Part shown: piece by piece, positions 1-19,267 of the stretch | Position numbering within the stretch: position 1 is the stretch's first letter | Layout: each line of letters opens with the position of its first letter | Origin: a virus | Taxonomy: Duplodnaviria; Heunggongvirae; Uroviricota; Caudoviricetes | IMG/VR virus record: IMGVR_UViG_2721755725_000016 | Coordinates: 1-19,267 of that record | Length of the DNA: 19,267 nucleotides | Direction: 5' to 3' (one strand) | Made by a program: the position numbers and the translations under genes | Notes under the pieces: model-generated | The model's input: the letters and a program-made list of their open reading frames with translations, nothing else | What the model was told of the DNA's origin: nothing | Databases searched by the model: none

Positions 1-360
1 TTAACTGACCCGCATGTATTCACCTGATATTGCGTTGTCAGCGCCGCCAGTATCGCGCATAACAGCGCACTGACCGGGTAAACCGTAGCGCACGACCGTT
101 GCGTTAGTATCACCGCCGCGCCGTATCTGGCGCGATTCATACACTGTCACCCGCTCAAGCAGTCCACCAGCAACCATGCTTTCCAGTGTGCGCCGGGTTG
201 ATTCGAGCTGGTGACGCTTATCGAACGACACCATGCCATGAAGCAGGTAGGCCACACCCGACACATCGAACGGCGGCGCACCAATCTCACCAGTCACCCA
301 TTCGAGGTTATCCGGTTCAAAGTAGCTAAGTATCTCTTTTTTGCGACTGGTCATTCTCAT
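1..360 (-). CDS. hypothetical protein (119 aa), divergent from the HNH gene
   Basis: Complete minus-strand ORF (ATG at 358-360, stop at 1-3). No motif recognised by eye. Confidence 0.4.
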   Translation of the reverse strand: MRMTSRKKEILSYFEPDNLEWVTGEIGAPPFDVSGVAYLLHGMVSFDKRHQLESTRRTLESMVAGGLLERVTVYESRQIRRGGDTNATVVRYGLPGQCAVMRDTGGADNAISGEYMRVS

Positions 361-906
361 GGCTGGCTGATTCCTTATTGTGGGATAGCACTATCATACA
401 ATAAGTGGGTTAAAGGGAGAGCGTTACCGCCTGATATGCTGTATGAATAACAACCAAATTTCAGGTGCGGAAAAAGATATGGGGGTACTTTTGGGGGTAT
501 CTATAAAAAATGAACAATAAAAAAGGCAACAAAAACAAAGCTTATCGCCTATGTGTATTGTTCCTATTATCGCACCATTTATATCAAGCAATTACGATTA
601 AATCCTCTCTTTGTCTGCATCATGATTTTTTCCGTGTAACTCCATGTGTAAGTAATTTTCGTCAACATAAATCAACAATAGAGCATCCGTATCTCAGATT
701 GGCTCAGTCTTGTTGATTTTTTCATCTTGATGAAACAATATTTCTGATATTGATGTTGGACATTTGGGGGGGCAGCTTAGCAGGCCTGTACAGGTTGTTT
801 CATTGATTATTGCTCTATATGCCTGCCCTTTTAGATAGCCCTTTCCTGTCTACTTCCATCTATGGTGTAATCCCTTGCGAGATTAAGGTTTCTTTCGAGA
901 GATAGT

Positions 907-1566
907 ATGGAATTATTCGAAAATTATTTGTCAGCGTTACCTAAAAAAAAGCGATTGAGTAAAGTCAAGTTGATTATCCTAAAGAGATTATGGGTTTCAG
1001 ATGATTTTGATTTTCCTAAACCTTGGGTCCCATCGACAGAATTACTGGAATTGACAGGGCAAAAGTACTTCGATAGACGAACAAGAGAGTTGCGTGATGA
1101 ACTAGGCTGTGATCTCGAAAGCTCGTACATTCCGGAATTCTCGGGACATGCTTGGCGGCTGAAATCAAGCATGATTGCCCCGCCAATGGAAAGGGAATAT
1201 CTGACAGAATCACAACGATCCAGTTTATTTTCTAACTGCAGCAATACATGTGCAACATGTGGTAAAACTGTTGCCGCTGGGGTCAGGGGGCTACAAGCGG
1301 ATCACAAAATACCTTTGTCACGCGGTGGTGGAAATGAGTTAACCAATTGGCAAGCTCTTTGCCACAATTGCAACGTAGGTAAGAGAAGAGCATGTGAGGG
1401 ATGTACTGAAGATTGTTACACATGCTCATGGGCATTTCCTGAAAAATTTGGGATAACAACAATGCTCCATCTGCCAGAAGCTAGTTTAAGAAGAGCCCAA
1501 CAACTAGCTGATGCAAAGGGTTTTTCTTTAGACGAAATCGTTGACTACGCAATACGCAAGCTTTGA
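907..1566 (+). CDS. HNH endonuclease (219 aa), candidate restriction endonuclease
   Basis: C-terminal HNH/zinc motif CATCGK...ADHKIPLSRGGGNELTNWQALCHNCN, followed by CEGCTEDCYTC. Convergent with the adjacent C5-MTase, 3' ends overlap 22 bp. AT-rich. A8 tract at 943-950 (codons PKKK). Confidence 0.7.
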   Translation: MELFENYLSALPKKKRLSKVKLIILKRLWVSDDFDFPKPWVPSTELLELTGQKYFDRRTRELRDELGCDLESSYIPEFSGHAWRLKSSMIAPPMEREYLTESQRSSLFSNCSNTCATCGKTVAAGVRGLQADHKIPLSRGGGNELTNWQALCHNCNVGKRRACEGCTEDCYTCSWAFPEKFGITTMLHLPEASLRRAQQLADAKGFSLDEIVDYAIRKL

Positions 1567-2615
1567 ACATCATTCGATTCCAGTGGTGATGCCAACTGTT
1601 TTTTTTTCATTAGATCAACCGCTTCGAGTGCTTTACGAATTTGCCTTCCTGTTGCTTCGGCAACAGGAGGAGGAAAAGCGTTACCTACTTGACGATAAGC
1701 AGCTGTTTTTTTCCCAGAGAATTCCCACCAGTCCGGGAAACCTTGGATTCGTGCAGCCATTCTCACCGTCAAACGAGGCATATTTTCAAGACCTGCTCGA
1801 ATATTTCCGTCTCTTCCAATATACCCAGTAAACCCCTTTTCAGGGCTACTATCAGCTATGGAATGCCCGTTGACTCCAAGCGCTTGCCAAGCTTTTTTGG
1901 CTCTCGTCGGTCCAAGGTCTGGACCTCCATGCTTATGGGAACCGCCAACAAGTGTAGGGGCTATATTGTTAGCGGCCTTTCTCCATGCCTCGGCTCCTTC
2001 CCAGCCACCCTGTGACATTAAGTCAAAGAGAGCATCACCCACAGTCGGTGGTATCAACGTTTCACTCGGCCAACGAAAATGAGCGGAATACTTACCACGC
2101 AATGCAACTAAAAGAACTCGGGGACGAAGCTGAGGAACTCCGTAATCAGAAGCGTTATGAAGTTTCCAAAAGGTTTTATAACCCATTGCAGAGAAAGCAT
2201 GATCTAGTTCTTGTCGGTATTGTTTAAACTTTGGGTCTAATAAACCTGAAACATTTTCAATCATTACTGCTTTTGGCTTAATGATGTTCACAATTTTGAG
2301 CGCTGTTGGAAACAAATCACGTTCATCATCTTTGCCTAGTTGTTTCCCTGCTTTTGAGAATGGCGGGCAGGGCACTCCCCCTGCGACCAAGTCAATATCA
2401 GAAAAATTATATGCAGTATGTTCAGCAAAATGCTTAACGCAACCCTCTATGATATTTTCCCAACCTAAAGAATGGAGCTCATTGTTGAGGCGAAGAGTTT
2501 CGCAGGCAGCAGGATCAATCTCGACGAGCGCGCGGTGAGTGAAGCCAGCGTTATGTAACCCTAGAGCTTGACCTCCTGCCCCTGCACAAATCTCTACAGA
2601 TGTGTATTGTAACAT
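1545..2615 (-). CDS. DNA cytosine-5 methyltransferase (356 aa)
   Basis: C5-MTase motifs in canonical order: motif I EICAGAGG, motif IV GGVPCPPFSKAG, motif VI ENV, motif VIII QLRPRVLL, motif X QVGNAFPPPVAEA. A9 tract on the coding strand (plus-strand T9 at 1599-1607, codons KKK) near the 3' end. Confidence 0.85.
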   Translation of the reverse strand: MLQYTSVEICAGAGGQALGLHNAGFTHRALVEIDPAACETLRLNNELHSLGWENIIEGCVKHFAEHTAYNFSDIDLVAGGVPCPPFSKAGKQLGKDDERDLFPTALKIVNIIKPKAVMIENVSGLLDPKFKQYRQELDHAFSAMGYKTFWKLHNASDYGVPQLRPRVLLVALRGKYSAHFRWPSETLIPPTVGDALFDLMSQGGWEGAEAWRKAANNIAPTLVGGSHKHGGPDLGPTRAKKAWQALGVNGHSIADSSPEKGFTGYIGRDGNIRAGLENMPRLTVRMAARIQGFPDWWEFSGKKTAAYRQVGNAFPPPVAEATGRQIRKALEAVDLMKKKQLASPLESNDVQSLRIA

Positions 2616-3115
2616 GTCATTAAACCTGTATATAAAAACAGTTGTATGTTTATCTGATCAGAGACCATTACGCAACAAATTGTACAAAACAAGTAGTACC
2701 GTCGCTATTGAACCGGTCAGCTTAGTTACTTGATTGCTGAATGACAAGGCAATCTACAACTTTGTTTTGGAATCCTATATTTATCAAATAACTAACATTC
2801 GACAGTACTATTGGCATTCTCTTGATCAGACAGGCAGAATCTCATGTGGACTGAATAAAATGCCTTAGCTGAGTACGAAAAGAACTACTATCTGTTTACA
2901 TGATTTTTTGTCCGTAAGATGCATTGCGTCCGCTGTAAATAGCAGACGCATTCTGCAGAGAACAAATGAATAAGAAAGATTGGCACGCTGCTTGTGGAAT
3001 TCAGCTTTGGCTTCGTCGCAACATGTCGGTTGTTTGTCGTGCTCGTAAGATATCTACGGTCTGAACCGCCCCGGAAATCCTGGAGACTAAACTCCCTGAG
3101 AAAGAGGTAAACAGG

Positions 3116-3441
3116 ATGACTAAAAATACTCGTTTTTCCCCGAAGTCCGTCAGCGGGCGATTCGTATGGTTCTGGAAAGTCAGGATGAATATGACTCACA
3201 GTGGGCGGCAATTTGTTCCATTGCCCCAAAGATTGGCTGTACGCCGGAGACTCTGCGTGTCTGGGTTCGCCAGCATGAGCGGGATACCGGGGGCGGTGAT
3301 GGTGGGCTCACCAGCGCTGAACGTCAGCGTCTGAAAGAGCTGGAACGTGAAAATCGTGAACTGCGCCGCAGTAACGATATCCTTCGCCAGGCTTCCGCTT
3401 ATTTTGCGAAGGCGGAGTTCGACCGCCTCTGGAAAAAATGA
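3116..3441 (+). pseudogene. IS orfA, frameshifted (C5 tract reduced to C4)
   Basis: Copies 2 and 3 read ttttCCCCCgaag; copy 1 reads ttttCCCCgaag at about 3140-3144. The reading frame breaks after MTKNTRFSP and resumes as the 3166..3441 ORF. Confidence 0.8.
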
Positions 3442-4328
3442 TGCCACTGCTGGATAAGCTGCGTGAGCAGTACGGGGTCGGACCGGTATGCAGCGAACTG
3501 CATATTGCCCCGTCAACGTATTACCATTGTCAGCAACAGCGACATCATCCGGATAAACGCAGTGCCCGTGCGCAGCACGACGACTGGCTGAAGAGAGAGA
3601 TACAGCGCGTATACGATGAAAATCATCAGGTGTACGGTGTGCGTAAAGTCTGGCGTCAGTTGTTACGGGAAGGAATCAGGGTGGCCAGATGTACAGTGGC
3701 ACGTCTCATGGCGGTTATGGGACTTGCCGGTGTTCTCCGGGGTAAAAAGGTCCGTACGACCATCAGCCGGAAAGCCGTTGCCGCAGGCGACCGCGTAAAC
3801 CGTCAGTTCGTGGCAGAACGACCTGACCAGCTGTGGGTGGCTGATTTTACTTACGTCAGCACATGGCAGGGCTTCGTCTATGTGGCGTTTATCATTGATG
3901 TGTTTGCCGGATACATCGTGGGGTGGCGGGTCTCATCGTCTATGGAAACGACATTCGTGCTGGATGCGCTGGAGCAGGCGTTGTGGGCCCGTCGTCCGTC
4001 TGGCACCATCCATCACAGCGATAAAGGCTCTCAGTATGTGTCACTGGCCTATACGGAGCGACTAAAAGAAGCCGGATTACTGGCATCAACAGGGAGTACA
4101 GGCGACTCGTATGACAACGCGATGGCTGAGAGCATCAATGGTCTTTACAAAGCGGAGGTAATACACCGTAAGAGCTGGAAAAACCGTGCAGAAGTGGAAC
4201 TGGCCACACTAACGTGGGTGGACTGGTATAACAATCGACGATTGCTGGGAAGGCTGGGCCATACTCCTCCGGCAGAAGCAGAAAAAGCTTATTATGCTTC
4301 CATCGGAAACGATGATCTGGCAGCCTGA
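3438..4328 (+). CDS. IS3-family transposase OrfB (296 aa)
   Basis: Identical 296-aa product in all three copies. Integrase-core motifs including [10 protein letters not shown]. Confidence 0.9.
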
Positions 4329-4370
4329 GTTCACAGATAAAACACTCTCCAGGAAACCCGGGGCGGTTCA

Positions 4371-4634
4371 GACTGAAGATAATGTGATTGCTCCCGCCTG
4401 CTCAACACTCTGTGATCGATACGAATCAGTTCGTACTTATCTACTAGGAAGTTGACTGTATCGGCTAAGGGGAATCCCGTTTTCAATATGTACCTTCATA
4501 ACAGTGTCGTCAATGCGCTGCGTATCGTTAAGAGTCAGGCTGTAGTGTTTGTCCTGCAGGTATGTAACTAGGGGCTGTCAGACGGTTACAGAGGACTTCG
4601 CCACACGTTTTCGGAATATAGGTAAAATTCTCAT
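4371..4634 (-). pseudogene. CbtA/YeeV/YpjF-family toxin remnant, multiply frameshifted and 3'-truncated by IS copy 1
   Basis: Manual minus-strand translation gives MRILP..., LQDKHYSLTLNDTQRIDDTVMKVHIENGIPL and ADTVNFLVDKYELIRIDHR in three different frames, matching my recollection of the CbtA-family order. The reading frame runs straight into the IS end at 4370. Confidence 0.7.
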
Positions 4635-4781
4635 CGTCGGTTATTCTGCGAATAAAAGAAATTAATTGCGGACGGGTTTTTCGCGGTACGTCACTGTCGT
4701 ATGGCAGCCAGCGTATCTTGGTTTATGCCCTGCTCCGTATTGTTATGTCGGTCGGTATGGCATAATGCAGTCCTAGCTTTT

Positions 4782-5130
4782 TCATCGCTGGCAAATGTAC
4801 CAGTGCGAACCGAAGGGGGATTCACCGATCATCCTTTTCGCATACAGCGTGACGGTCTGCTGATGACGGGGATTCAGTTCACCGCTGGTGAACATGAGTT
4901 CCAGTTGTTTCATCAGCAGTGGAAAGGCTTGGTCCAGATGGTATGCATCCGCATCGCTGAACCGGCCTCTGATACCGGCGCGGTCTGCAAGGTAATGCAA
5001 CTGATTGCCCTCCTGCACCAGACGGGCGCCAAAACGGGGTGTCACTGTCACGAACGGTGCAGGGCAGCCCCCACCAGGGGCGGTCGTGATTGTCGTCGGG
5101 ATAATTTGTTTCATGGAGCGTGTCTGACAC
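4782..5130 (-). pseudogene. CbeA/YeeU/YfjZ-family antitoxin with internal frameshift
   Basis: N-terminus MSDTLHETNYPDDNHDRPWWGLPCTV is in one frame (start 5130); the remainder ...TVTPRFGARLVQEGNQLHYLADRAGIRG... is in the +1 frame down to the stop at 4782. The break is near 5045-5055 and looks like a roughly 10-bp imperfect duplication (gtgacagtgaca). Confidence 0.6.
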
Positions 5131-5209
5131 GATAAAATCCTCACAGAAAATCGGTTAAGAACGGTCAGGTAATGTCGATAATTCTGCTCATCAGAATGCC
5201 CTTACTGAC

Positions 5210-5431
5210 TCAGTTCAGAGTGACGCTCATCAGCCGGACATACGGGCCAAAACTGTCCTTACGGCGTTCTGCAAACACGGCCAGCACACCGGGAATATTC
5301 TGCACTTCACGACCGGTATACGCCTTAGCACTGCCGTGCCAGCGGTATTTGCCGGTACAGAACGGAAAAAGACGGGATGCAGGATGCTGTTGGTGAATAC
5401 GCATGGCTTCACCACGGGTGATGATTTTCAT
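5210..5431 (-). CDS. DUF987 family protein (YeeT/YkfH/YpjJ-like, 73 aa)
   Basis: MKIITRGEAMRIHQQHP...FPFCTGKYRWHG...VRLMSVTLN closely matches the recalled YeeT-family sequence. Sits in the conserved position between the RadC-like gene and the antitoxin. Confidence 0.8.
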   Translation of the reverse strand: MKIITRGEAMRIHQQHPASRLFPFCTGKYRWHGSAKAYTGREVQNIPGVLAVFAERRKDSFGPYVRLMSVTLN

Positions 5432-5499
5432 GGTGTGATACCTCTGAAGACAGAAGATAAAAGTGAAAACAGGTGTGATGTGGTGGTGACGGTGACGGG

Positions 5500-5976
5500 T
5501 TAAAGCAGACCATGTTCGGCAAAGGAGAAAACCTGGTTGCCACCAACTATCAGATGGTCCGGCACCCGGATATCCACCAGGCCCAGTGCCTGTACCAGAC
5601 GTTCCGTGATAAGGCGGTCTGCCTTGCTGGGTGTGACTTCACCGGACGGGTGATTGTGTGCCAGCACCACGGCTGCGGCATTGTGGTACAGGGCGCGTTT
5701 AATCACTTCCCGGGGATGGACTTCCGTGCGGTTGATGGTGCCGGTGAAGAGGGTTTCACCGGCAATCAGCTGATTCTGGTTGTTCAGATACAGCACCCGG
5801 AATTCTTCACGCTCCAGTCCCGCCATGTTCAGAATCAGCCATTCCCGTGCCGTACGGGTGGAGGTGAAGGCCACGCCGGGTTCATGAAGATGGCGGTCCA
5901 GGGTTTTCAGGGCCCGCAGAATGAGGCTGCGCTCTCTGGTTGTCATTTCTCCGGGCAGAAAGGAAAGCTGCTGCAT
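5500..5976 (-). CDS. RadC-like JAB/MPN domain protein (YeeS/YfjY/YkfG family, 158 aa)
   Basis: JAMM-type motif HNHPSGEVTPSKAD and surrounding conserved context. Confidence 0.85.
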   Translation of the reverse strand: MQQLSFLPGEMTTRERSLILRALKTLDRHLHEPGVAFTSTRTAREWLILNMAGLEREEFRVLYLNNQNQLIAGETLFTGTINRTEVHPREVIKRALYHNAAAVVLAHNHPSGEVTPSKADRLITERLVQALGLVDIRVPDHLIVGGNQVFSFAEHGLL

Positions 5977-5991
5977 TGTTCCGGCCCCCTT

Positions 5992-6477
5992 TCAGTCGAT
6001 GATGCGCATAATGGCGTTGCATTCCGGATGCTGCAGGGCGTAATCCCGCAGCCGGTAATAATGGACCGTCATGGCATAACACTCCGTACGACAGGCATGA
6101 TGGCTGTACGTCATCAGACAGGCGGCAATACCGGCGGCTTCCGGGCTCATTTCAGCGCGGTTACCGTTCATGGCATTGAACAGTACCCATGTTTCTCCAT
6201 CATCTTCATCCGGTTCTGGAGCCATAAATGCCCCGCCGTTGTTCAGGGTGTACAGATTCCAGATACCACCACAGTAGTCTTCGCAAAGACGGTCCATCCA
6301 GCCGAAGATACGGGGCTCCAGGGTCACCCACTGTGAAATGAGGCCAAAATGTTGCGGCCAGAAGCTGATGCGCTGTTCATCAGGGACGAGAGTAGCAACC
6401 AGCTGAGGTGGGTTATTCCCTGATGCAGCGGTTACGGAAACAGAAGGTGTGGTGGAATTATGCGTAACGGTTGTCAT
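5992..6477 (-). CDS. antirestriction protein, KlcA/ArdB-like (YfjX/YafX family, 161 aa)
   Basis: Sequence character of the Antirestriction family and conserved position immediately upstream of the RadC-like gene. Confidence 0.75.
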   Translation of the reverse strand: MTTVTHNSTTPSVSVTAASGNNPPQLVATLVPDEQRISFWPQHFGLISQWVTLEPRIFGWMDRLCEDYCGGIWNLYTLNNGGAFMAPEPDEDDGETWVLFNAMNGNRAEMSPEAAGIAACLMTYSHHACRTECYAMTVHYYRLRDYALQHPECNAIMRIID

Positions 6478-6567
6478 GAGATTATTCCTTATAAAAAGTA
6501 AATGAATGGAAGAATGCCCGGGGAAGGGACAGCCGTGAGTCAGGACTGCGCTTTCAGGGAAAAGGCA

Positions 6568-7386
6568 TCAGCGCATGCTCTCCAGCAGCGTTTCTGCCAT
6601 CACCCACAATGCCCGGTTGAGCTTAATGTCGGTATCGATGCTGTGAATGGCACGGGTGTGGATACGTTTTCCTTTTGCACTGCGACCGGAAAGCCCGCCT
6701 TTCAGCATATTCTCCTGGATGGTCTGATAAGCACTCCACAGGTCCTTACCGTAATCCTCCCTGCGTCGTGGTGTCAGAATGTCGGCGGTGGTGACGGGCT
6801 GATGTTCGTCACCATAACGGTAAGTCAGTGCCGCCTGTGCCAGCGCCTGGCGTGCCGGTGGCGGCAGGACCAGCGACTGCATGGCATCACGCTTCTCCTC
6901 TATCCGGTCAAACACACCCACCACCTCGTAAGCCCCTTCAATGACTCTGTCCACCACATTTCCCCGGTGCGGAACACGCACTTCCCCCAGAGACTGACCA
7001 CAGACGCAGCCGTTCTGGCAGACGAATCTGAAGTAACCCGGCAGCATCTGGTAGCTGGAGGTACCGTCATGGGAGTTGAGCAGAATAATTTCAGGGACAT
7101 GTTGTCCGTTTATCTCCCCGTCACGGCGCAGACGCAGCATGTGTTTGGTATACCCCCGGCGGCCCGGGTCACGTACGCGGGTCTGGCAGGCGAAGAATGG
7201 CTGAAAGCCTTCCCGCTGCAGGCTTTCCAGCACTGTGATGGTGGGGATGTACGAATACCGTTCACTGCGGGAGGTATGCCGGTCTTCCCCAAAAATGCTG
7301 GGAACATAGTGCATCAGTTCTTCATGGGTCAGTGGGCGGTCACGGCGTATCTGATTAATCCGTCCGAAGCGACTGGCTAATCGCAT
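6568..7386 (-). CDS. DUF932 protein (YafZ/YfjQ-like, 272 aa from the preferred start)
   Basis: Preferred start ATG at 7384-7386 is preceded by AAGGAG at 7-nt spacing. The track's longer ORF starts at 7446. Conserved position upstream of the antirestriction gene. Confidence 0.7.
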   Translation of the reverse strand: MRLASRFGRINQIRRDRPLTHEELMHYVPSIFGEDRHTSRSERYSYIPTITVLESLQREGFQPFFACQTRVRDPGRRGYTKHMLRLRRDGEINGQHVPEIILLNSHDGTSSYQMLPGYFRFVCQNGCVCGQSLGEVRVPHRGNVVDRVIEGAYEVVGVFDRIEEKRDAMQSLVLPPPARQALAQAALTYRYGDEHQPVTTADILTPRRREDYGKDLWSAYQTIQENMLKGGLSGRSAKGKRIHTRAIHSIDTDIKLNRALWVMAETLLESMR

Positions 7387-7413
7387 AATTAACTCCTTAT
7401 CTGATAATGAAAT

Positions 7414-7450
7414 AAAAGCAAAAAGGCCATGTCCCCGGAGGAACATGGCC
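7414..7450 (-). terminator. rho-independent terminator downstream of the 312-aa secreted-protein gene
   Basis: 8-bp stem GGCCATGT/ACATGGCC (7425-7432 and 7443-7450) with a 10-nt loop, followed on the minus strand by UUUUUGCUUUU (7414-7424). Confidence 0.55.
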
Positions 7451-7475
7451 TGATGGAATATATTATTGCTGATGA

Positions 7476-8414
7476 TTAATGTTGCTGATTTTTCTCTTTA
7501 ACTTTTGACCATGAGGGGCGTCGGTTGCCGGAAAATTCCTTCTGCATTGACCAGTAACCAATCGGGAACTGCTTCACCAGCACCCCGTTGATACCAATAT
7601 CGACGGACAGATACTGACCGTTGTTGATGCTGCCCTTGCGGATGTACGCATCCGCACTGCAGGTGCCGGTATCATACTGCCGCCATGTTGCGGTATCGCG
7701 GGCGGCAACATAAAAATCACCGAAAGCACAGCCCGTTGCTGACTTACGATTCAGAACGGCAACGTAATACTTAGTGTTGGCTATAATGGCGCAACTGCTG
7801 CTCTGACCGCCGCAGACCTGCCATAACGTTTTGCTGCTGTCACCCTTAAAGGTCCAGATAGTGTCTGCCGGTGCGCCGTCTGTATGTGTTACTGGCAATG
7901 CCGGAGCCTGCTGCACTGGTGTAACGTCGGGTACGTCGCGGCGTAATAGTCGTGCTTCAGCATCCCCGACATCGCCAAACATGTTTTCCTCTCCGCTGTT
8001 GTAATAAAAACCGGCAATAACATGTTCTGAGGGGATATACAGTATTTTCAGATAATGGTCACCGCAATTACCCCGCTCACAGACAGACCCCAGCAGCCAC
8101 TTCTCGTCACCAACGACCACCGGAATTAATCCACTGTCAGGGCCGTTCATGGAGCCCTGTTTTCCCGTTAACCCGGTGAGTCCTGCTGACTTCAGCGCAT
8201 CATCAAGGTCTTTCTTGAATACCGGGTCGGCATCGTAGATACTGCCCAGAAAGGGGCAGGAACCGTATCCGTTTTCATTATCACCAGCATCAGGATCACA
8301 GCGCATTGCATCTGCTGCCGTTTTTGCGACACCGGCAGCGTAAACTCCGGTGGAAATAAAACAAAGCGAGGATATCAGTATTATCTGTTTTAATTTACGT
8401 AATACAAGAAACAT
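7476..8414 (-). CDS. secreted cysteine-rich protein (312 aa), function unknown
   Basis: N-terminal signal peptide MFLVLRKLKQIILISSLCFISTGVYA. Eight Cys in the mature part, including CERGNCGDH. Own RBS and own terminator. Confidence 0.65.
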   Translation of the reverse strand: MFLVLRKLKQIILISSLCFISTGVYAAGVAKTAADAMRCDPDAGDNENGYGSCPFLGSIYDADPVFKKDLDDALKSAGLTGLTGKQGSMNGPDSGLIPVVVGDEKWLLGSVCERGNCGDHYLKILYIPSEHVIAGFYYNSGEENMFGDVGDAEARLLRRDVPDVTPVQQAPALPVTHTDGAPADTIWTFKGDSSKTLWQVCGGQSSSCAIIANTKYYVAVLNRKSATGCAFGDFYVAARDTATWRQYDTGTCSADAYIRKGSINNGQYLSVDIGINGVLVKQFPIGYWSMQKEFSGNRRPSWSKVKEKNQQH

Positions 8415-8440
8415 GATTATTTTTACTCCATCCTGTTTAT

Positions 8441-8469
8441 ATAAAAGAAACGGGCTCCGTGAAGAGCCC
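8441..8469 (-). terminator. terminator-like hairpin downstream of the 136-aa secreted-protein gene
   Basis: Stem GGGCTC/GAGCCC (8452-8457 and 8464-8469) with a 6-nt loop, followed on the minus strand by GUUUCUUUUAU. Confidence 0.45.
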
Positions 8470-8479
8470 TGTAAAAAAT

Positions 8480-8890
8480 TTAAAAGTCAATGGTATTAAG
8501 ACCAACATTCTTTTTGATGGAGGGATCGTAAATAACAACGGTAAGATGGTCTTTGTCTGAAGAACGGACAAACTTAGCGGTGGCCTCACCACTGCATGTT
8601 GCATGACGGTTATAATCCATCATTTTACCTTTGCTGGTAGCAAGATTGACAACGATGATATAAGGATCATAACAGGCCGAACCTCCCGGACTGCTCAGCA
8701 AGGCATATTTGCCATCATCAGAGACACCAATGAGGCTGCATATCCCGTCTTTTATATCCTCACTTCCGCACATCTGCTCACTTCCATCTTTCACATCAAT
8801 CACAGTACGGGGTAATTTAACCTCTGTAGCATTAACTGATGCACTCAACAACAAACCTGAAACTATTAATGACAATATAAACGCTTTCAT
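8480..8890 (-). CDS. small secreted protein (136 aa), function unknown
   Basis: Signal peptide MKAFILSLIVSGLLLSASVNA, four Cys in the mature part. AT-rich. Start lies 49 bp from the IRR end of IS copy 2. Confidence 0.6.
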   Translation of the reverse strand: MKAFILSLIVSGLLLSASVNATEVKLPRTVIDVKDGSEQMCGSEDIKDGICSLIGVSDDGKYALLSSPGGSACYDPYIIVVNLATSKGKMMDYNRHATCSGEATAKFVRSSDKDHLTVVIYDPSIKKNVGLNTIDF

Positions 8891-8981
8891 ATACTCATCC
8901 TGTTTATCATTACGGGGGATATATTCCTTTTATTCTGCTTGAACCGCCCCGGGTTTCCTGGAGAGTGTTTTATCTGTGAAC

Positions 8982-17028: not shown

Positions 17029-17910
17029 CTATAAATCTCTACTCATTAAATCAGATATTTTTATCAAGCTCATTTCTCTGTCTTTGTTTACATAAAGCTG
17101 AAGCAAGCGGGTGTATCTCTCGCTTATAGATTCAAGTGCAAAAGGCTTTATTGATTCCTTAATAGCCTGCGTATCTTTCGGATCATCACTAAAAACCAAG
17201 GCAGAAATCATCGGATTGCTCACTTCCTTACCTGACTTCTCACCCCAAATCAGCAGATCAACAATAGGTATCACTCTATTAGATATCAACTTCTGAAGGG
17301 TCTTTAATCCAATCCTTTTCTGAGCGACATGCTCTCTCTCTGGTACTTTTAACTCTTTTCGCCATAGAGGTAGAAGGTGAGTCAGGCTGGTAATAATTTC
17401 GTCATCAGTGGCGTCATCTAAATCTATAGAAACGAGTATGATGTTAGGGGAACAATTACTTAGGTTTCCAGTAACACTCGCAAGCATAGCGTTTGCCTTG
17501 AGGTAGCAATCCTCTTCGTCTCTTTTAAAAAAGCCTTGATCTATCGATGAGAAAGAGTACATGGCCAGCTCTGAAAATGTTACTGGACTAACCCCCATAG
17601 CTGAAGATAATGAGGGAAGATCATCGTACTCATTTCTTAATGATGGGGCTTCATCATTTACTTTGCGAATAAATTCTTCGACCTCTTCCTCTTCTTCATT
17701 GAGAATGGTTAGGTTAGGATCGCCCGAAAAAATCCTTTCATATTTTATATCGTACTCTTCTTTGAATATAGCAGTGTCATCTTTTGCATGACGCAATAAA
17801 AAATCGCGCCACTCTAATTCTTGAATCAAGTCCGGCAAGGTTAAATCATTTAAAAATTCATAATTACTAATATCAAACCATGCTAAATCTTGTTTTTTGG
17901 CTCTCACCAT
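17029..17910 (-). CDS. AT-rich orphan protein (293 aa), acidic, no recognisable domain
   Basis: Clean ORF with visibly lower GC than the flanking int and alpA. Acidic runs EEEEEVEE and DLDDATDDE. Occupies the int-alpA slot. Confidence 0.6.
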   Translation of the reverse strand: MVRAKKQDLAWFDISNYEFLNDLTLPDLIQELEWRDFLLRHAKDDTAIFKEEYDIKYERIFSGDPNLTILNEEEEEVEEFIRKVNDEAPSLRNEYDDLPSLSSAMGVSPVTFSELAMYSFSSIDQGFFKRDEEDCYLKANAMLASVTGNLSNCSPNIILVSIDLDDATDDEIITSLTHLLPLWRKELKVPEREHVAQKRIGLKTLQKLISNRVIPIVDLLIWGEKSGKEVSNPMISALVFSDDPKDTQAIKESIKPFALESISERYTRLLQLYVNKDREMSLIKISDLMSRDL

Positions 17911-18052
17911 ACGCCACCCCGCGCCCCTAATTCTGACGGCTATGCCAGCCCGTAGGGGTGTACGGGTTTTCGGGGATCAGCCTAGACATAGCCTATTCTT
18001 TGTTCGTCTACATAAGTCTACTACCATTGCTTAACACGGTCTATTCATACAG

Positions 18053-19267
18053 TTAAGCTCGTTTCCCAAACGAACCATGAACAACGTTCTCCTCCTTCTC
18101 CAGCGCATCCATATAGTCGGCATACCATTGAAGCATCTCCCGCCTTCCATCCAGATATTGCGCATGGTTGTATGTGCCACGAATTGAGTTCTTATCAACG
18201 TGAGCGAGCTGCGTTTCTATCCACGCGGTGTTATAGCCCTGCTCATGCAAAATCGTGCTCATAGTGTGCCGGAACCCATGACCAGTTACACGTCCAGCGT
18301 AGCCAATGCGCTTAAACACTTGGTTTATGCTGGCCTCACTCATTGTTTTCCTTGGATCATTGCGCCCGGGAAACATAAGAGGGTAATTGCCTGTTATTTC
18401 TCTAATCTTCCCAATAAGCGAAAGAGCCTGATCAGACAATGGCACAATATGAGGCCGCCGCATTTTCATACGTGAAGCGGGTATCTCCCAGATAGCCTTG
18501 TTGAAATCAATTTCATCCCATAATGCGCCACGTAGTTCGCCAGTCCGCAAGCCGGTGATAATCAGTAGACGAGCCGCCATAACAACCAATGCGCTTCCTG
18601 AGTAACTGGACAATGCCTTGAAAAAATCAGGTAATTCTTTAGCTGTAAGGAAAGGGTAATGATTAGATTCATGGCCTTGCATCGCGCTAGTAAGGTCTGG
18701 TGCAGGGTTATACTCTGCGCGACCAGTGACTATTGCATAGCGGAAAACTTCCCCGCACCGCTGCCTCACTTTTTTGGCTTTTTCTGTAGCACCGCGCCCC
18801 TCGATGCGCCGCAGCACATTCAGAAGTTCAAGTGGTTTGATTTCGGCGATTGGTTTTTTGCCAATGTAAGGGAACACATCTTTGTTGAAGGCTTCGAGGA
18901 TGTCTGAAGCATAACCAGCAGACCATTTTTTTAATTTGCTGCTGTGCCACTCAAGGGCAATATCTTTGAAGGTGTTGTTTAACTGCGTTTCCCGGGCAAT
19001 CTTTTCCTCTCGTTTCGCTTCCATCGGATCGATACCACCAGCGATACCTCTTTTCGCATCTTCACGTTTTGCCCGAGCATCGGCTAGAGTAACCTCAGGA
19101 TACACACCTAGTGCCAATAGCTTCTCTTTACCAGCTACACGATATTTAAGTCGCCAGTATTTACCTCCATTAGGTTTTACCAAGAGATACAAACCGCCAC
19201 CATCGGCCAGCTTGTAAGCCTTCTCTTTTGGCTTGGCTGTGTCTATTTGACGGGCATTGAGTTTCAC
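18053..19267 (-). CDS. int: P4-type tyrosine integrase (at least 404 aa; begins at the window edge, possibly 5'-partial)
   Basis: N-terminal AKPKEKAYKLADGGGLYLLVKPNGGKYWR. Catalytic HGFRHT and C-terminal GTYNHAQY (Tyr). First codon in the window is GTG at 19265-19267. Confidence 0.9.
   Translation of the reverse strand: MKLNARQIDTAKPKEKAYKLADGGGLYLLVKPNGGKYWRLKYRVAGKEKLLALGVYPEVTLADARAKREDAKRGIAGGIDPMEAKREEKIARETQLNNTFKDIALEWHSSKLKKWSAGYASDILEAFNKDVFPYIGKKPIAEIKPLELLNVLRRIEGRGATEKAKKVRQRCGEVFRYAIVTGRAEYNPAPDLTSAMQGHESNHYPFLTAKELPDFFKALSSYSGSALVVMAARLLIITGLRTGELRGALWDEIDFNKAIWEIPASRMKMRRPHIVPLSDQALSLIGKIREITGNYPLMFPGRNDPRKTMSEASINQVFKRIGYAGRVTGHGFRHTMSTILHEQGYNTAWIETQLAHVDKNSIRGTYNHAQYLDGRREMLQWYADYMDALEKEENVVHGSFGKRA

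Follow-up and report, generated by a model that had tools for sequence, protein, structure and literature searches.

Ivy (YkfE; PF08816; PDB 1GPQ, 1XS0, 1UUZ) is an inhibitor of vertebrate lysozyme encoded by a core gene, and the only biochemistry known for its scaffold is the tight binding of a peptidoglycan glycosidase via a protruding disulfide loop, whose motif CKPHDC is cited as conserved in Ivy (PMC3660660; bioRxiv 10.1101/2024.04.20.590424). An accessory Ivy-like protein of E. coli O121, Hypo_04657, carries the loop CKANTC, and its knockdown raised T7 plating (bioRxiv 10.1101/2024.04.20.590424). A further inhibitor of a peptidoglycan hydrolase is Spackle (gp61.3) of phage T4, described in PMC7677548 as a periplasmic inhibitor of the gp5 tail lysozyme that causes superinfection exclusion. 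Here, two adjacent genes encoding exported proteins of 136 and 312 amino acids (aa) are described from the IMG/VR virus record IMGVR_UViG_2721755725_000016 (positions 1 to 19,267, i.e., the whole stretch of DNA that was analysed, hereafter the window). The larger protein has an N-terminal domain with the fold of Ivy and a loop of different sequence, and the smaller one is a homolog of proteins of jumbo phages.

The exported gene pair

Both open reading frames are located on the minus strand, where they had been placed by a first-pass annotation made from the letters of the window alone. The genes and the signal peptide of the larger product are found at the following positions:

7476-8414, minus strand: gene for the 312-aa exported two-domain protein (open reading frame and translation; RefSeq WP_000480477.1, annotated 'hypothetical')
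8480-8890, minus strand: gene for the 136-aa exported four-cysteine protein (WP_000642924.1; member of PHROG 8968 and homolog of SPN3US_0182)
8337-8414, minus strand: signal peptide codons (residues 1-26) of the 312-aa protein (heuristic features)

Both genes are real and functional, as they are under purifying selection: in comparison with alleles 78-86% identical, the ratio of nonsynonymous to synonymous substitution rates (dN/dS) was 0.10-0.19 for the pair (0.13-0.16 for the 312-aa gene and 0.10-0.19 for the 136-aa gene). The pair was detected in 75 of 5,426 complete E. coli genomes (1.4%), always on the chromosome and with alleles 78-100% identical, and 70 homologs of the 312-aa protein were found, in Enterobacterales. 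The island loci compared were those of E. coli (at 100, 84, and 78% identity), Salmonella, and Serratia fonticola. In all of them, the 136-type gene stood directly 5' of the 312-type gene, and the spacer between them (8415-8479, minus strand, and its counterparts in L018, L023, L026, and L031) measured exactly 65 nucleotides (nt) in 5/5 diverged loci. Since the 136-type gene always precedes the 312-type gene with a spacer of fixed length, the two are not independent cassettes, and the 'monocistronic' organisation proposed in the first-pass annotation is only putative. This obligate 136-then-312 order is new as far as the literature shows.

Genes of the 312 type without the partner were found in Serratia, S. 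salamae, Pectobacterium, and Erwinia persicina, and a distant relative of the 136-aa protein (P0096, 36% identical, L009 7192-8414) occurred without a 312-type gene. P0096 is encoded directly after a separate 179-aa GYF_2 protein and near dynamin-like, YjcZ, and patatin genes. The 312-type homolog of E. persicina (P0064, L032 5001-6146) has an N-terminal GYF_2 domain before a hydrophobic segment, and the association of GYF_2 with both protein types is recurrent.

Signal peptides were judged by heuristic sequence features (Kyte-Doolittle hydropathy, N-terminal charge, and cleavage motif). Sec type I features, as noted in the first pass, were seen in both N-termini. The signal peptide of the 136-aa protein has one N-terminal Lys, the hydrophobic core FILSLIVSGLLL (Kyte-Doolittle 2.75), no Cys, and a predicted cleavage site between VNA and T after residue 21. 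In the 312-aa protein, 3 K/R within residues 1-10 are followed by the core IILISSLCFIST (Kyte-Doolittle 2.32), and cleavage is predicted between VYA and A after residue 26. Residues 1-28 of the AlphaFold2 (AF2) model of this protein had a predicted local distance difference test score (pLDDT) <50, and the signal peptide is its least conserved region (28% mean pairwise identity). A lipobox is absent from both signal peptides. Cys18 of the 312-aa protein was considered as a lipoprotein cysteine and rejected; it follows S-S-L (Leu at -1) and occurs in only 8/28 homologs.

The mature 136-aa protein contains four cysteines (C41, C51, C73, C99) and the mature 312-aa protein eight (C39, C53, C112, C117, C201, C208, C229, C252), in agreement with the earlier count, and every one of them is invariant or nearly invariant across homologs. 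The earlier proposal of export and disulfide bonding is well supported by the sequence and by the conservation of all mature cysteines, and both proteins are predicted to be disulfide-bonded residents of the periplasm. All features listed in the first-pass annotation for the pair (reading frames, export signals, cysteines, hairpins, 12-mer, and orientation of the insertion sequence (IS)) are present. Its functional interpretation was supported with respect to export, disulfides, a lysozyme-inhibitor fold (in half of the larger protein), and the cargo slot; classical c-type lysozyme inhibition is doubtful, and independent cassettes were not supported.

The Ivy-fold domain of the 312-aa protein

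The N-terminal domain of the 312-aa protein has the three-dimensional fold of Ivy. Domain and loop are encoded at:

7935-8327, minus strand: Ivy-fold N-terminal domain, residues ~30-160
8064-8081, minus strand: disulfide loop C112-E-R-G-N-C117, at the position of the Ivy inhibitory loop CKPHDC (profile alignment to 1GPQ/1XS0; hhalign)

The protein itself scored 14.4 bits against the Pfam model Ivy (PF08816; gathering cut-off 21; E-value 0.042, residues 98-140), and 27 of 28 aligned 312-type homologs matched the model at E ≤ 0.1 (best 4.2e-10). In hhalign, the N-domain profile aligned to E. coli Ivy with an E-value of 9.6e-5. The Ivy relation of the larger protein is already known from some automatic annotations, in which 312-type homologs are named 'Ivy family c-type lysozyme inhibitor' by NCBI; the two-domain architecture with a systematically non-canonical loop is new as far as the literature shows. 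No match to NCBIfam was found for either protein, and PDB sequence searches with both yielded noise only.

C112-x4-C117 aligns with C-KPHD-C of Ivy, and both cysteines are kept in 27-28 of 28 family members. In contrast to Ivy, the loop CERGNC is without the aligned His, Pro, and Asp, its Gly being placed where the Ivy loop has His. The family shows a well-conserved loop pattern of its own (C-E-x-[GNSH]-N-C-G-x-H), and the CKPHDC/KPHD motif was found in none of the 28 members. His60 of the Ivy loop is said (Abergel et al. 2007) to plug the active site of lysozyme. By these alignments, the scaffold and the disulfide loop of Ivy are kept in the 312-aa protein, and the residues that define the lysozyme-plugging loop are replaced. 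It further differs from Ivy in an additional cysteine pair (C39, C53), in a 120-residue C-terminal domain, and in being encoded by a rare, island-borne gene instead of a core gene. Hypo_04657 resembles it in having an N-terminal Ivy-like domain with a non-canonical loop, but has another loop and an alpha-helical C-terminal half, and is set apart from the 312 family by its published description.

Fold and aligned disulfide loop, the NCBI names of some homologs, and the occurrence in gut pathogens and commensals (enterohaemorrhagic E. coli (EHEC) O111/O157, Salmonella) would all agree with the 312-aa protein inhibiting host c-type lysozyme in the classical, virulence-type manner of chromosomal Ivy, next to an unrelated 136-aa neighbour. 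Classical inhibition is doubtful, however, because the loop lacks the CKPHDC motif and its His, with Gly at the His position and the canonical motif in no family member. In addition, a chromosomal ivy gene is already present in E. coli, the 312-aa score is under the Pfam Ivy threshold, and neither the strict linkage to a phage-derived partner nor the extra C-domain would be explained, so that this explanation is considered unlikely. Of the lysozyme-inhibitor fold guessed in the first pass, the fold itself was confirmed, in one half of the larger protein only and with a loop that lacks CKPHDC.

The N-domain diverges faster than the C-domain, with a mean pairwise identity of 51% vs 71% and, in comparison with Serratia and S. 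salamae, a dN of 0.46-0.55 vs 0.14-0.21. A conserved loop inside a fast-evolving domain thus fits a binding interface that tracks a variable partner.

Some E. coli alleles (H163, H164) matched by blastn only over the C-domain, at ~90% nucleotide identity, which suggests domain-wise replacement or a much faster evolution of the Ivy half. Four 312-type homologs (including P0059 and P0058) have a long Ala/Pro/Thr-rich interdomain linker (residues ~128-226); these match Pfam DUF7908 barely above threshold (29.6 vs 27 bits), a match that may reflect low complexity.

Jumbo-phage relatives and a possible role

The 136-aa protein matched PHROG 8968 over residues 1-134 of the 135-position profile (E 2.9e-38), and alignment of its family with the phage members of PHROG 8968 in hhalign gave Prob 100% and E 1e-42. 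The signal peptide and four-cysteine pattern (C-x9-10-C ... C ... C) of this PHROG are both present in the island protein, the AF2 model of which had a pLDDT of 84. In a tblastn search on phage genomes, 48 records matched, all of them jumbo phages (the SPN3US group (Seoulvirus), Erwinia amylovora jumbo phages, and Proteus phage 7), with 43-48% identity over the mature protein and E-values of 1e-28 to 5e-31. A word-indexed search returned close relatives only, and an exhaustive profile search of 1.8 billion representatives returned 18 matches, about 10 of them small proteins of similar size. That the 136-aa protein has its homologs in jumbo-phage PHROG 8968 is new as far as the literature shows. 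For the 312-aa protein, no tblastn match was obtained among 50,697 phage records.

The homolog in SPN3US is SPN3US_0182 (YP_009153476.1), which shares with the 136-aa protein its length, the signal peptide, the four cysteines, and a near-identical C-terminus, YDP(S/T)IKKNVG-N--DF. It belongs to a tandem of four signal-peptide cysteine proteins, SPN3US_0180-0183 (PHROGs 9424, 17072, 8968, and 5248), 5' of an SMC-like gene, and corresponding clusters, with three to four proteins of this kind, are present in Wellington and Huxley. The phage genes thus differ from the island gene in being arranged in tandems of 3-5 paralogs in lytic phages, whereas the island has a single copy, which is paired with an Ivy fusion that lacks a phage counterpart. 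Tandem arrays of this kind were located at L015 4039-5748 (SPN3US), L029 537-2220 (Wellington), L030 590-1779 (Huxley), and L011 6614-7821; they consist of 3-4 small exported cysteine paralogs a few genes 5' of the SMC-like gene, all annotated as hypothetical.

The C-terminal domain of the larger protein was compared with the same phage families:

7515-7871, minus strand: C-terminal four-cysteine beta domain, residues ~182-300, probable member of the PHROG 5248 / YfjS-YafY superfamily

In hmmscan, PHROG 5248 was matched by the isolated C-domain (E 5.5e-4), by the full 312-aa protein (2.7e-3), and by the homolog P0067 (5e-5). In hhalign, the C-domain aligned with the gp183-type family over 87 columns with all four cysteines in register (Prob 43%, E 2.5e-4). 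A Foldseek search of the 312-aa model against BFVD gave as its only significant matches four Erwinia jumbo-phage proteins of 129-134 aa (E 3e-6 to 3e-4, probability 1.0), two of which have lengths equal to those of genes in the jumbo-phage paralog clusters. The 136 family, for its part, aligned with the gp183-type family (PHROG 5248; Prob 96%, E 8e-9) and with the gp181-type family (Prob 97%). Between the two island proteins, BLASTP found no match (E 0.33), full-length hhalign aligned the signal peptides alone, and a domain-trimmed hhalign of the mature 136-aa protein with the 312 C-domain was suggestive only (E 0.032). As no significant direct match was obtained, the link between them was drawn through the phage families. 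On this evidence, the 136-aa protein certainly belongs to an exported, cysteine-stabilised beta superfamily of CP4-type islands and SPN3US-like jumbo phages, and the 312 C-domain probably belongs to it. As drawn broadly, the superfamily comprises PHROGs 8968, 17072, and 5248 and YfjS/YafY, and a common origin of the 136-aa protein, the C-domain, and YfjS/YafY, which is new as far as the literature shows, is probable. It is a slim prospect that the proteins are not inhibitors at all, and either build, as two-blade-like beta modules, an oligomeric scaffold or adhesin-like structure in the periplasm or are decaying cargo with no present-day role.

K-12 YfjS matched PHROG 5248, the hub family also of the 312 C-domain, with E-values of 4e-5 (hmmscan) and 1.7e-4 (hhalign), and its direct hhalign match to the 312 C-domain was weak (E 0.012). 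PF20494 (YfjS/YafY), which K-12 YfjS matches at 1.4e-68, was matched by neither the 136-aa nor the 312-aa protein at E ≤ 10. YfjS and YafY resemble the pair in occupying the same slot of the same island type after a YfjR-like WYL/DeoR regulator, and differ in having a lipobox and only two domain cysteines. Another conceivable role is to modulate the envelope of the bacterium itself, as has been suggested for Ivy and YafY: the pair would hold the cell's own lytic transglycosylases in check, or report envelope stress through Cpx, and thereby aid host stress tolerance. YfjS is linked to PHROG 5248, and overproduction of YafY, which is probably related to the superfamily, activates Cpx (PMC6538781). 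Ivy-type proteins also partly inhibit MltA/MltB in vitro, although E. coli Ivy is a weak lytic-transglycosylase inhibitor with no in vivo effect (PMC10139938). A housekeeping role, however, would not fit a pair present in so small a fraction of E. coli genomes, nor would it fit the lytic jumbo-phage homologs and the fast-evolving Ivy domain, and we assign this role a low probability.

It is well established that mobile elements carry acquired orphan immunity genes. Proteins that are small, periplasmic, encoded on a mobile element, and under purifying selection, one of them with a glycosidase-inhibitor fold, could be orphan immunity proteins against periplasm-acting toxins such as muramidase effectors of type VI secretion systems (T6SS) or of contact-dependent inhibition (CDI) systems. 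No effector, Hcp/VgrG/PAAR, or CDI gene was found near any locus examined, however, and the nearest non-island relatives are in lytic jumbo phages and not in toxin loci, which leaves such a function very improbable.

The replaced but conserved loop, the fast Ivy domain, the rare, mobile, island-borne pair, and a partner derived from or shared with lytic jumbo phages fit a binder of an enzyme other than animal c-type lysozyme, and one that differs between attackers. In the proposed mechanism, the genes encode a linked pair of Sec-exported proteins, predicted to be disulfide-bonded and periplasmic, and belong to the accessory cargo of a CP4-57/CP4-6-type island integrated at thrW. The 312-aa protein joins an Ivy-fold domain (with CE-x-GNC in place of CKPHDC) to a four-cysteine beta domain, and the 136-aa protein is a stand-alone member of the broad superfamily of that C-domain, with exported proteins of SPN3US-like jumbo phages as its nearest non-island relatives. 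Both may act as stoichiometric periplasmic binders or inhibitors of a peptidoglycan-cleaving enzyme arriving from outside, the candidate target being a muramidase or lytic transglycosylase that an infecting phage, or another invading element, brings in. By analogy with Ivy, the variant loop could plug a catalytic cleft unlike that of c-type lysozyme, and the outcome would be exclusion or envelope protection for the host of the island. As a whole, periplasmic exclusion or envelope protection by inhibition of a foreign muramidase or lytic transglycosylase is the favoured reading, put forward tentatively at somewhat less than an even chance, with both the target and the exclusion phenotype being putative. 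T4 Spackle is a functional analogue only, namely a small exported phage protein blocking the peptidoglycan hydrolase of an incoming phage. Superinfection exclusion, one of the roles listed in the first pass, gains in plausibility because the 136-aa protein has clear jumbo-phage homologs.

Several points weigh against this proposal. Neither protein matched a defence model in PADLOC-DB 2.0, and a literature search retrieved no paper on SPN3US gp180-183. Inhibitor activity of any kind would be an assumption, since the inhibitory His/Pro/Asp of the Ivy loop are absent, and no family member has the KPHD motif. The C-domain link consists of several concordant, individually weak scores (E 1e-4 to 1e-3). 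The K-12 relatives YafY/YfjS are known only as inner-membrane lipoproteins (PMC6538781).

A broader variant would unite the 136-aa protein, the 312 C-domain, YfjS/YafY, and the jumbo-phage paralogs as one hitherto unrecognised superfamily of periplasmic four-cysteine beta proteins that keeps foreign DNA out (superinfection or entry exclusion), its members binding the machinery with which incoming phages or conjugative elements cut peptidoglycan or cross the periplasm. The island pair would then be a host-captured phage exclusion gene plus a retargeted Ivy domain, possibly assembled as a heteromeric propeller-like complex. This variant seems rather unlikely as drawn. If the proposed mechanism holds, a recurrent slot in the CP4-type islands that are very common in Enterobacterales, K-12 yfjS and yafY among its occupants, would gain a function, and a conserved exported-protein cluster of jumbo phages of the nucleus-forming type would gain a first role. 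The mechanism would also represent a retargeting of the Ivy scaffold, through loop replacement, to enzymes other than animal lysozyme, and would bear on jumbo-phage therapy against EHEC/Salmonella and on host protection by mobile islands. If the proteins were ordinary lysozyme or lytic-transglycosylase inhibitors, the gain would be a modest improvement in the annotation of two 'hypothetical proteins'.

Transcription signals and island context

The remaining features around the pair are:

7424-7451, minus strand: strong intrinsic-terminator hairpin 3' of the 312-aa gene (12-bp stem, then UUUUUGCUUUU)
8452-8469, minus strand: terminator-like hairpin between the genes, in the 65-nt spacer (7-bp stem, U-tract)
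8429-8440, minus strand: 12-mer ATAAACAGGATG before the 312-aa gene, directly 5' of the conserved Shine-Dalgarno sequence GGAG
8896-8907, minus strand: 12-mer ATAAACAGGATG before the 136-aa gene, containing its Shine-Dalgarno sequence AGGA
6568-7386, minus strand: DUF932 gene, the next downstream backbone gene (Pfam DUF932, E 4e-52; annotation)
8940-10249, minus strand: IS1203/IS629 copy 2, at a rearrangement junction (ends TGAACCGCC...GGCGGTTCA; RefSeq annotation)

A terminator-like hairpin had been ascribed to each gene, and for both a stable hairpin with a U-tract is present on the coding strand: the distal one (7451-7424) has a folding energy of -23.1 kcal/mol (z -4.96) with the U-tract next to it, and the one between the genes (8469-8452) of -12.5 kcal/mol (z -4.22). 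Stem and U-tract of the latter are invariant over five diverged loci. The spacer is 87% identical on average, i.e., at least as conserved as the adjoining coding sequence, and its hairpin, U-tract, and Shine-Dalgarno sequence are conserved across loci. All genes are co-oriented, and the inter-gene terminator is modest. The sole sigma-70-like site near the pair (8416-8445, minus strand; TTTATA, 18-nt spacer, AATAAT) leaves only 2 nt between its end and the 312-aa start codon, so that a transcript from it, if the site is used, would be leaderless or start within the 312-aa gene; no such site was found for the 136-aa gene. A hairpin with a U-tract was also observed directly 5' of the 312-type gene behind other upstream genes (Serratia, S. 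salamae).

The 12-mer, reported in the first pass as shared, does precede both starts, and matches with ≤1 mismatch occurred 5 times in the window vs 0.10 expected. It is exact before the 136-type gene in one diverged E. coli island; before the 312-type gene, 1-2 positions differ in two E. coli islands and 4 positions in Salmonella. Since it is absent at the Serratia, Pectobacterium, and S. salamae loci, it was rejected as a family-wide regulatory box and kept as a lineage-level conserved segment. A close 312-only allele, which would bear on the two 12-mers as a duplication scar around an inserted 136 cassette, was not found. The sequence GTAAACAGGATG, an 11/12 match to the 12-mer, occurs at 3107-3118 (plus strand), 10193-10204 (minus strand), and 15231-15242 (minus strand), in each case in a region ending in the orfA start codon of one of the three IS1203/IS629 copies. 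The motif is thus present in three unrelated translation-start contexts within the window, and its occurrence in IS1203 orfA is probably coincidental.

The island is of the CP4-57/CP4-6 type and is integrated at tRNA-Thr (thrW), adjoining proA. The window comes from E. coli of the EHEC type. Over 7300-9000, O111:H- strain 11128, several O111:H8 strains, and strain 2013C-4081 match it at 100% identity, and some O157:H7 cattle isolates at 99.6%. On the minus strand, IS copy 2 is followed by the 136-aa gene (8890-8480), the 312-aa gene (8414-7476), the DUF932 gene (7386-6568), and then antirestriction, RadC/JAB, DUF987, and decayed YeeU/CbtA genes, a local order that equals the backbone of the K-12 cryptic prophages CP4-57, CP4-6, and CP4-44. 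At the place of the pair, K-12 CP4-57 has yfjS-yfjT, in line with the earlier proposal of a variable-cargo position. K-12 YfjT (L007 11149-11616), the signal-peptide neighbour of YfjS in CP4-57, matched PHROG 3429 (E 7e-15) and is a second exported island protein with phage relatives in the same slot, via a different phage family.

Relatives that lack the IS have, 5' of the 136-aa gene, a 71-aa gene and genes for a 49-aa zinc-ribbon protein, a WYL regulator, and a YeeP/YfjP-type GTPase. In the window, the native upstream region of the pair is lost through an IS-mediated rearrangement. IS copy 2 has the orientation of the 136-aa gene and stops 50 bp short of the ATG on its 5' side, i.e., it reads toward this gene as had been noted.

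On its other side, IS copy 2 abuts a segment of ~3.7 kb (10250-13977) where the 71-aa, 49-aa, WYL, and GTPase genes would be expected. The segment carries P4-like satellite genes (a primase-helicase zinc-ribbon fragment and an Ash-family protein), ends at IS copy 3 (13978-15287), and is absent from strain 2013C-4081. IS copy 2 is without a target-site duplication, as its 3-bp flanks differ (GCT at 8937-8939 and GTG at 10250-10252). An apparent 13-nt flank common to IS copies 1 and 2 was rejected as an artefact of ungapped extension, with 7/12 matches on reading the sequence. In Salmonella enterica (L018 5495-5935), an in-frame fusion joins the translation start of the 49-aa zinc-ribbon gene (MKISNITRRHLRTGK...) to the 136-type gene. 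The product of 146 aa thus carries additional N-terminal residues ahead of its signal peptide, and the locus has lost the WYL and 71-aa genes by deletion. The CbtA toxin and YeeU/CbeA antitoxin genes of the window (~4400-5200, minus strand) are frameshifted or truncated pseudogenes in the identical RefSeq records, in which the genes for the exported proteins are intact.

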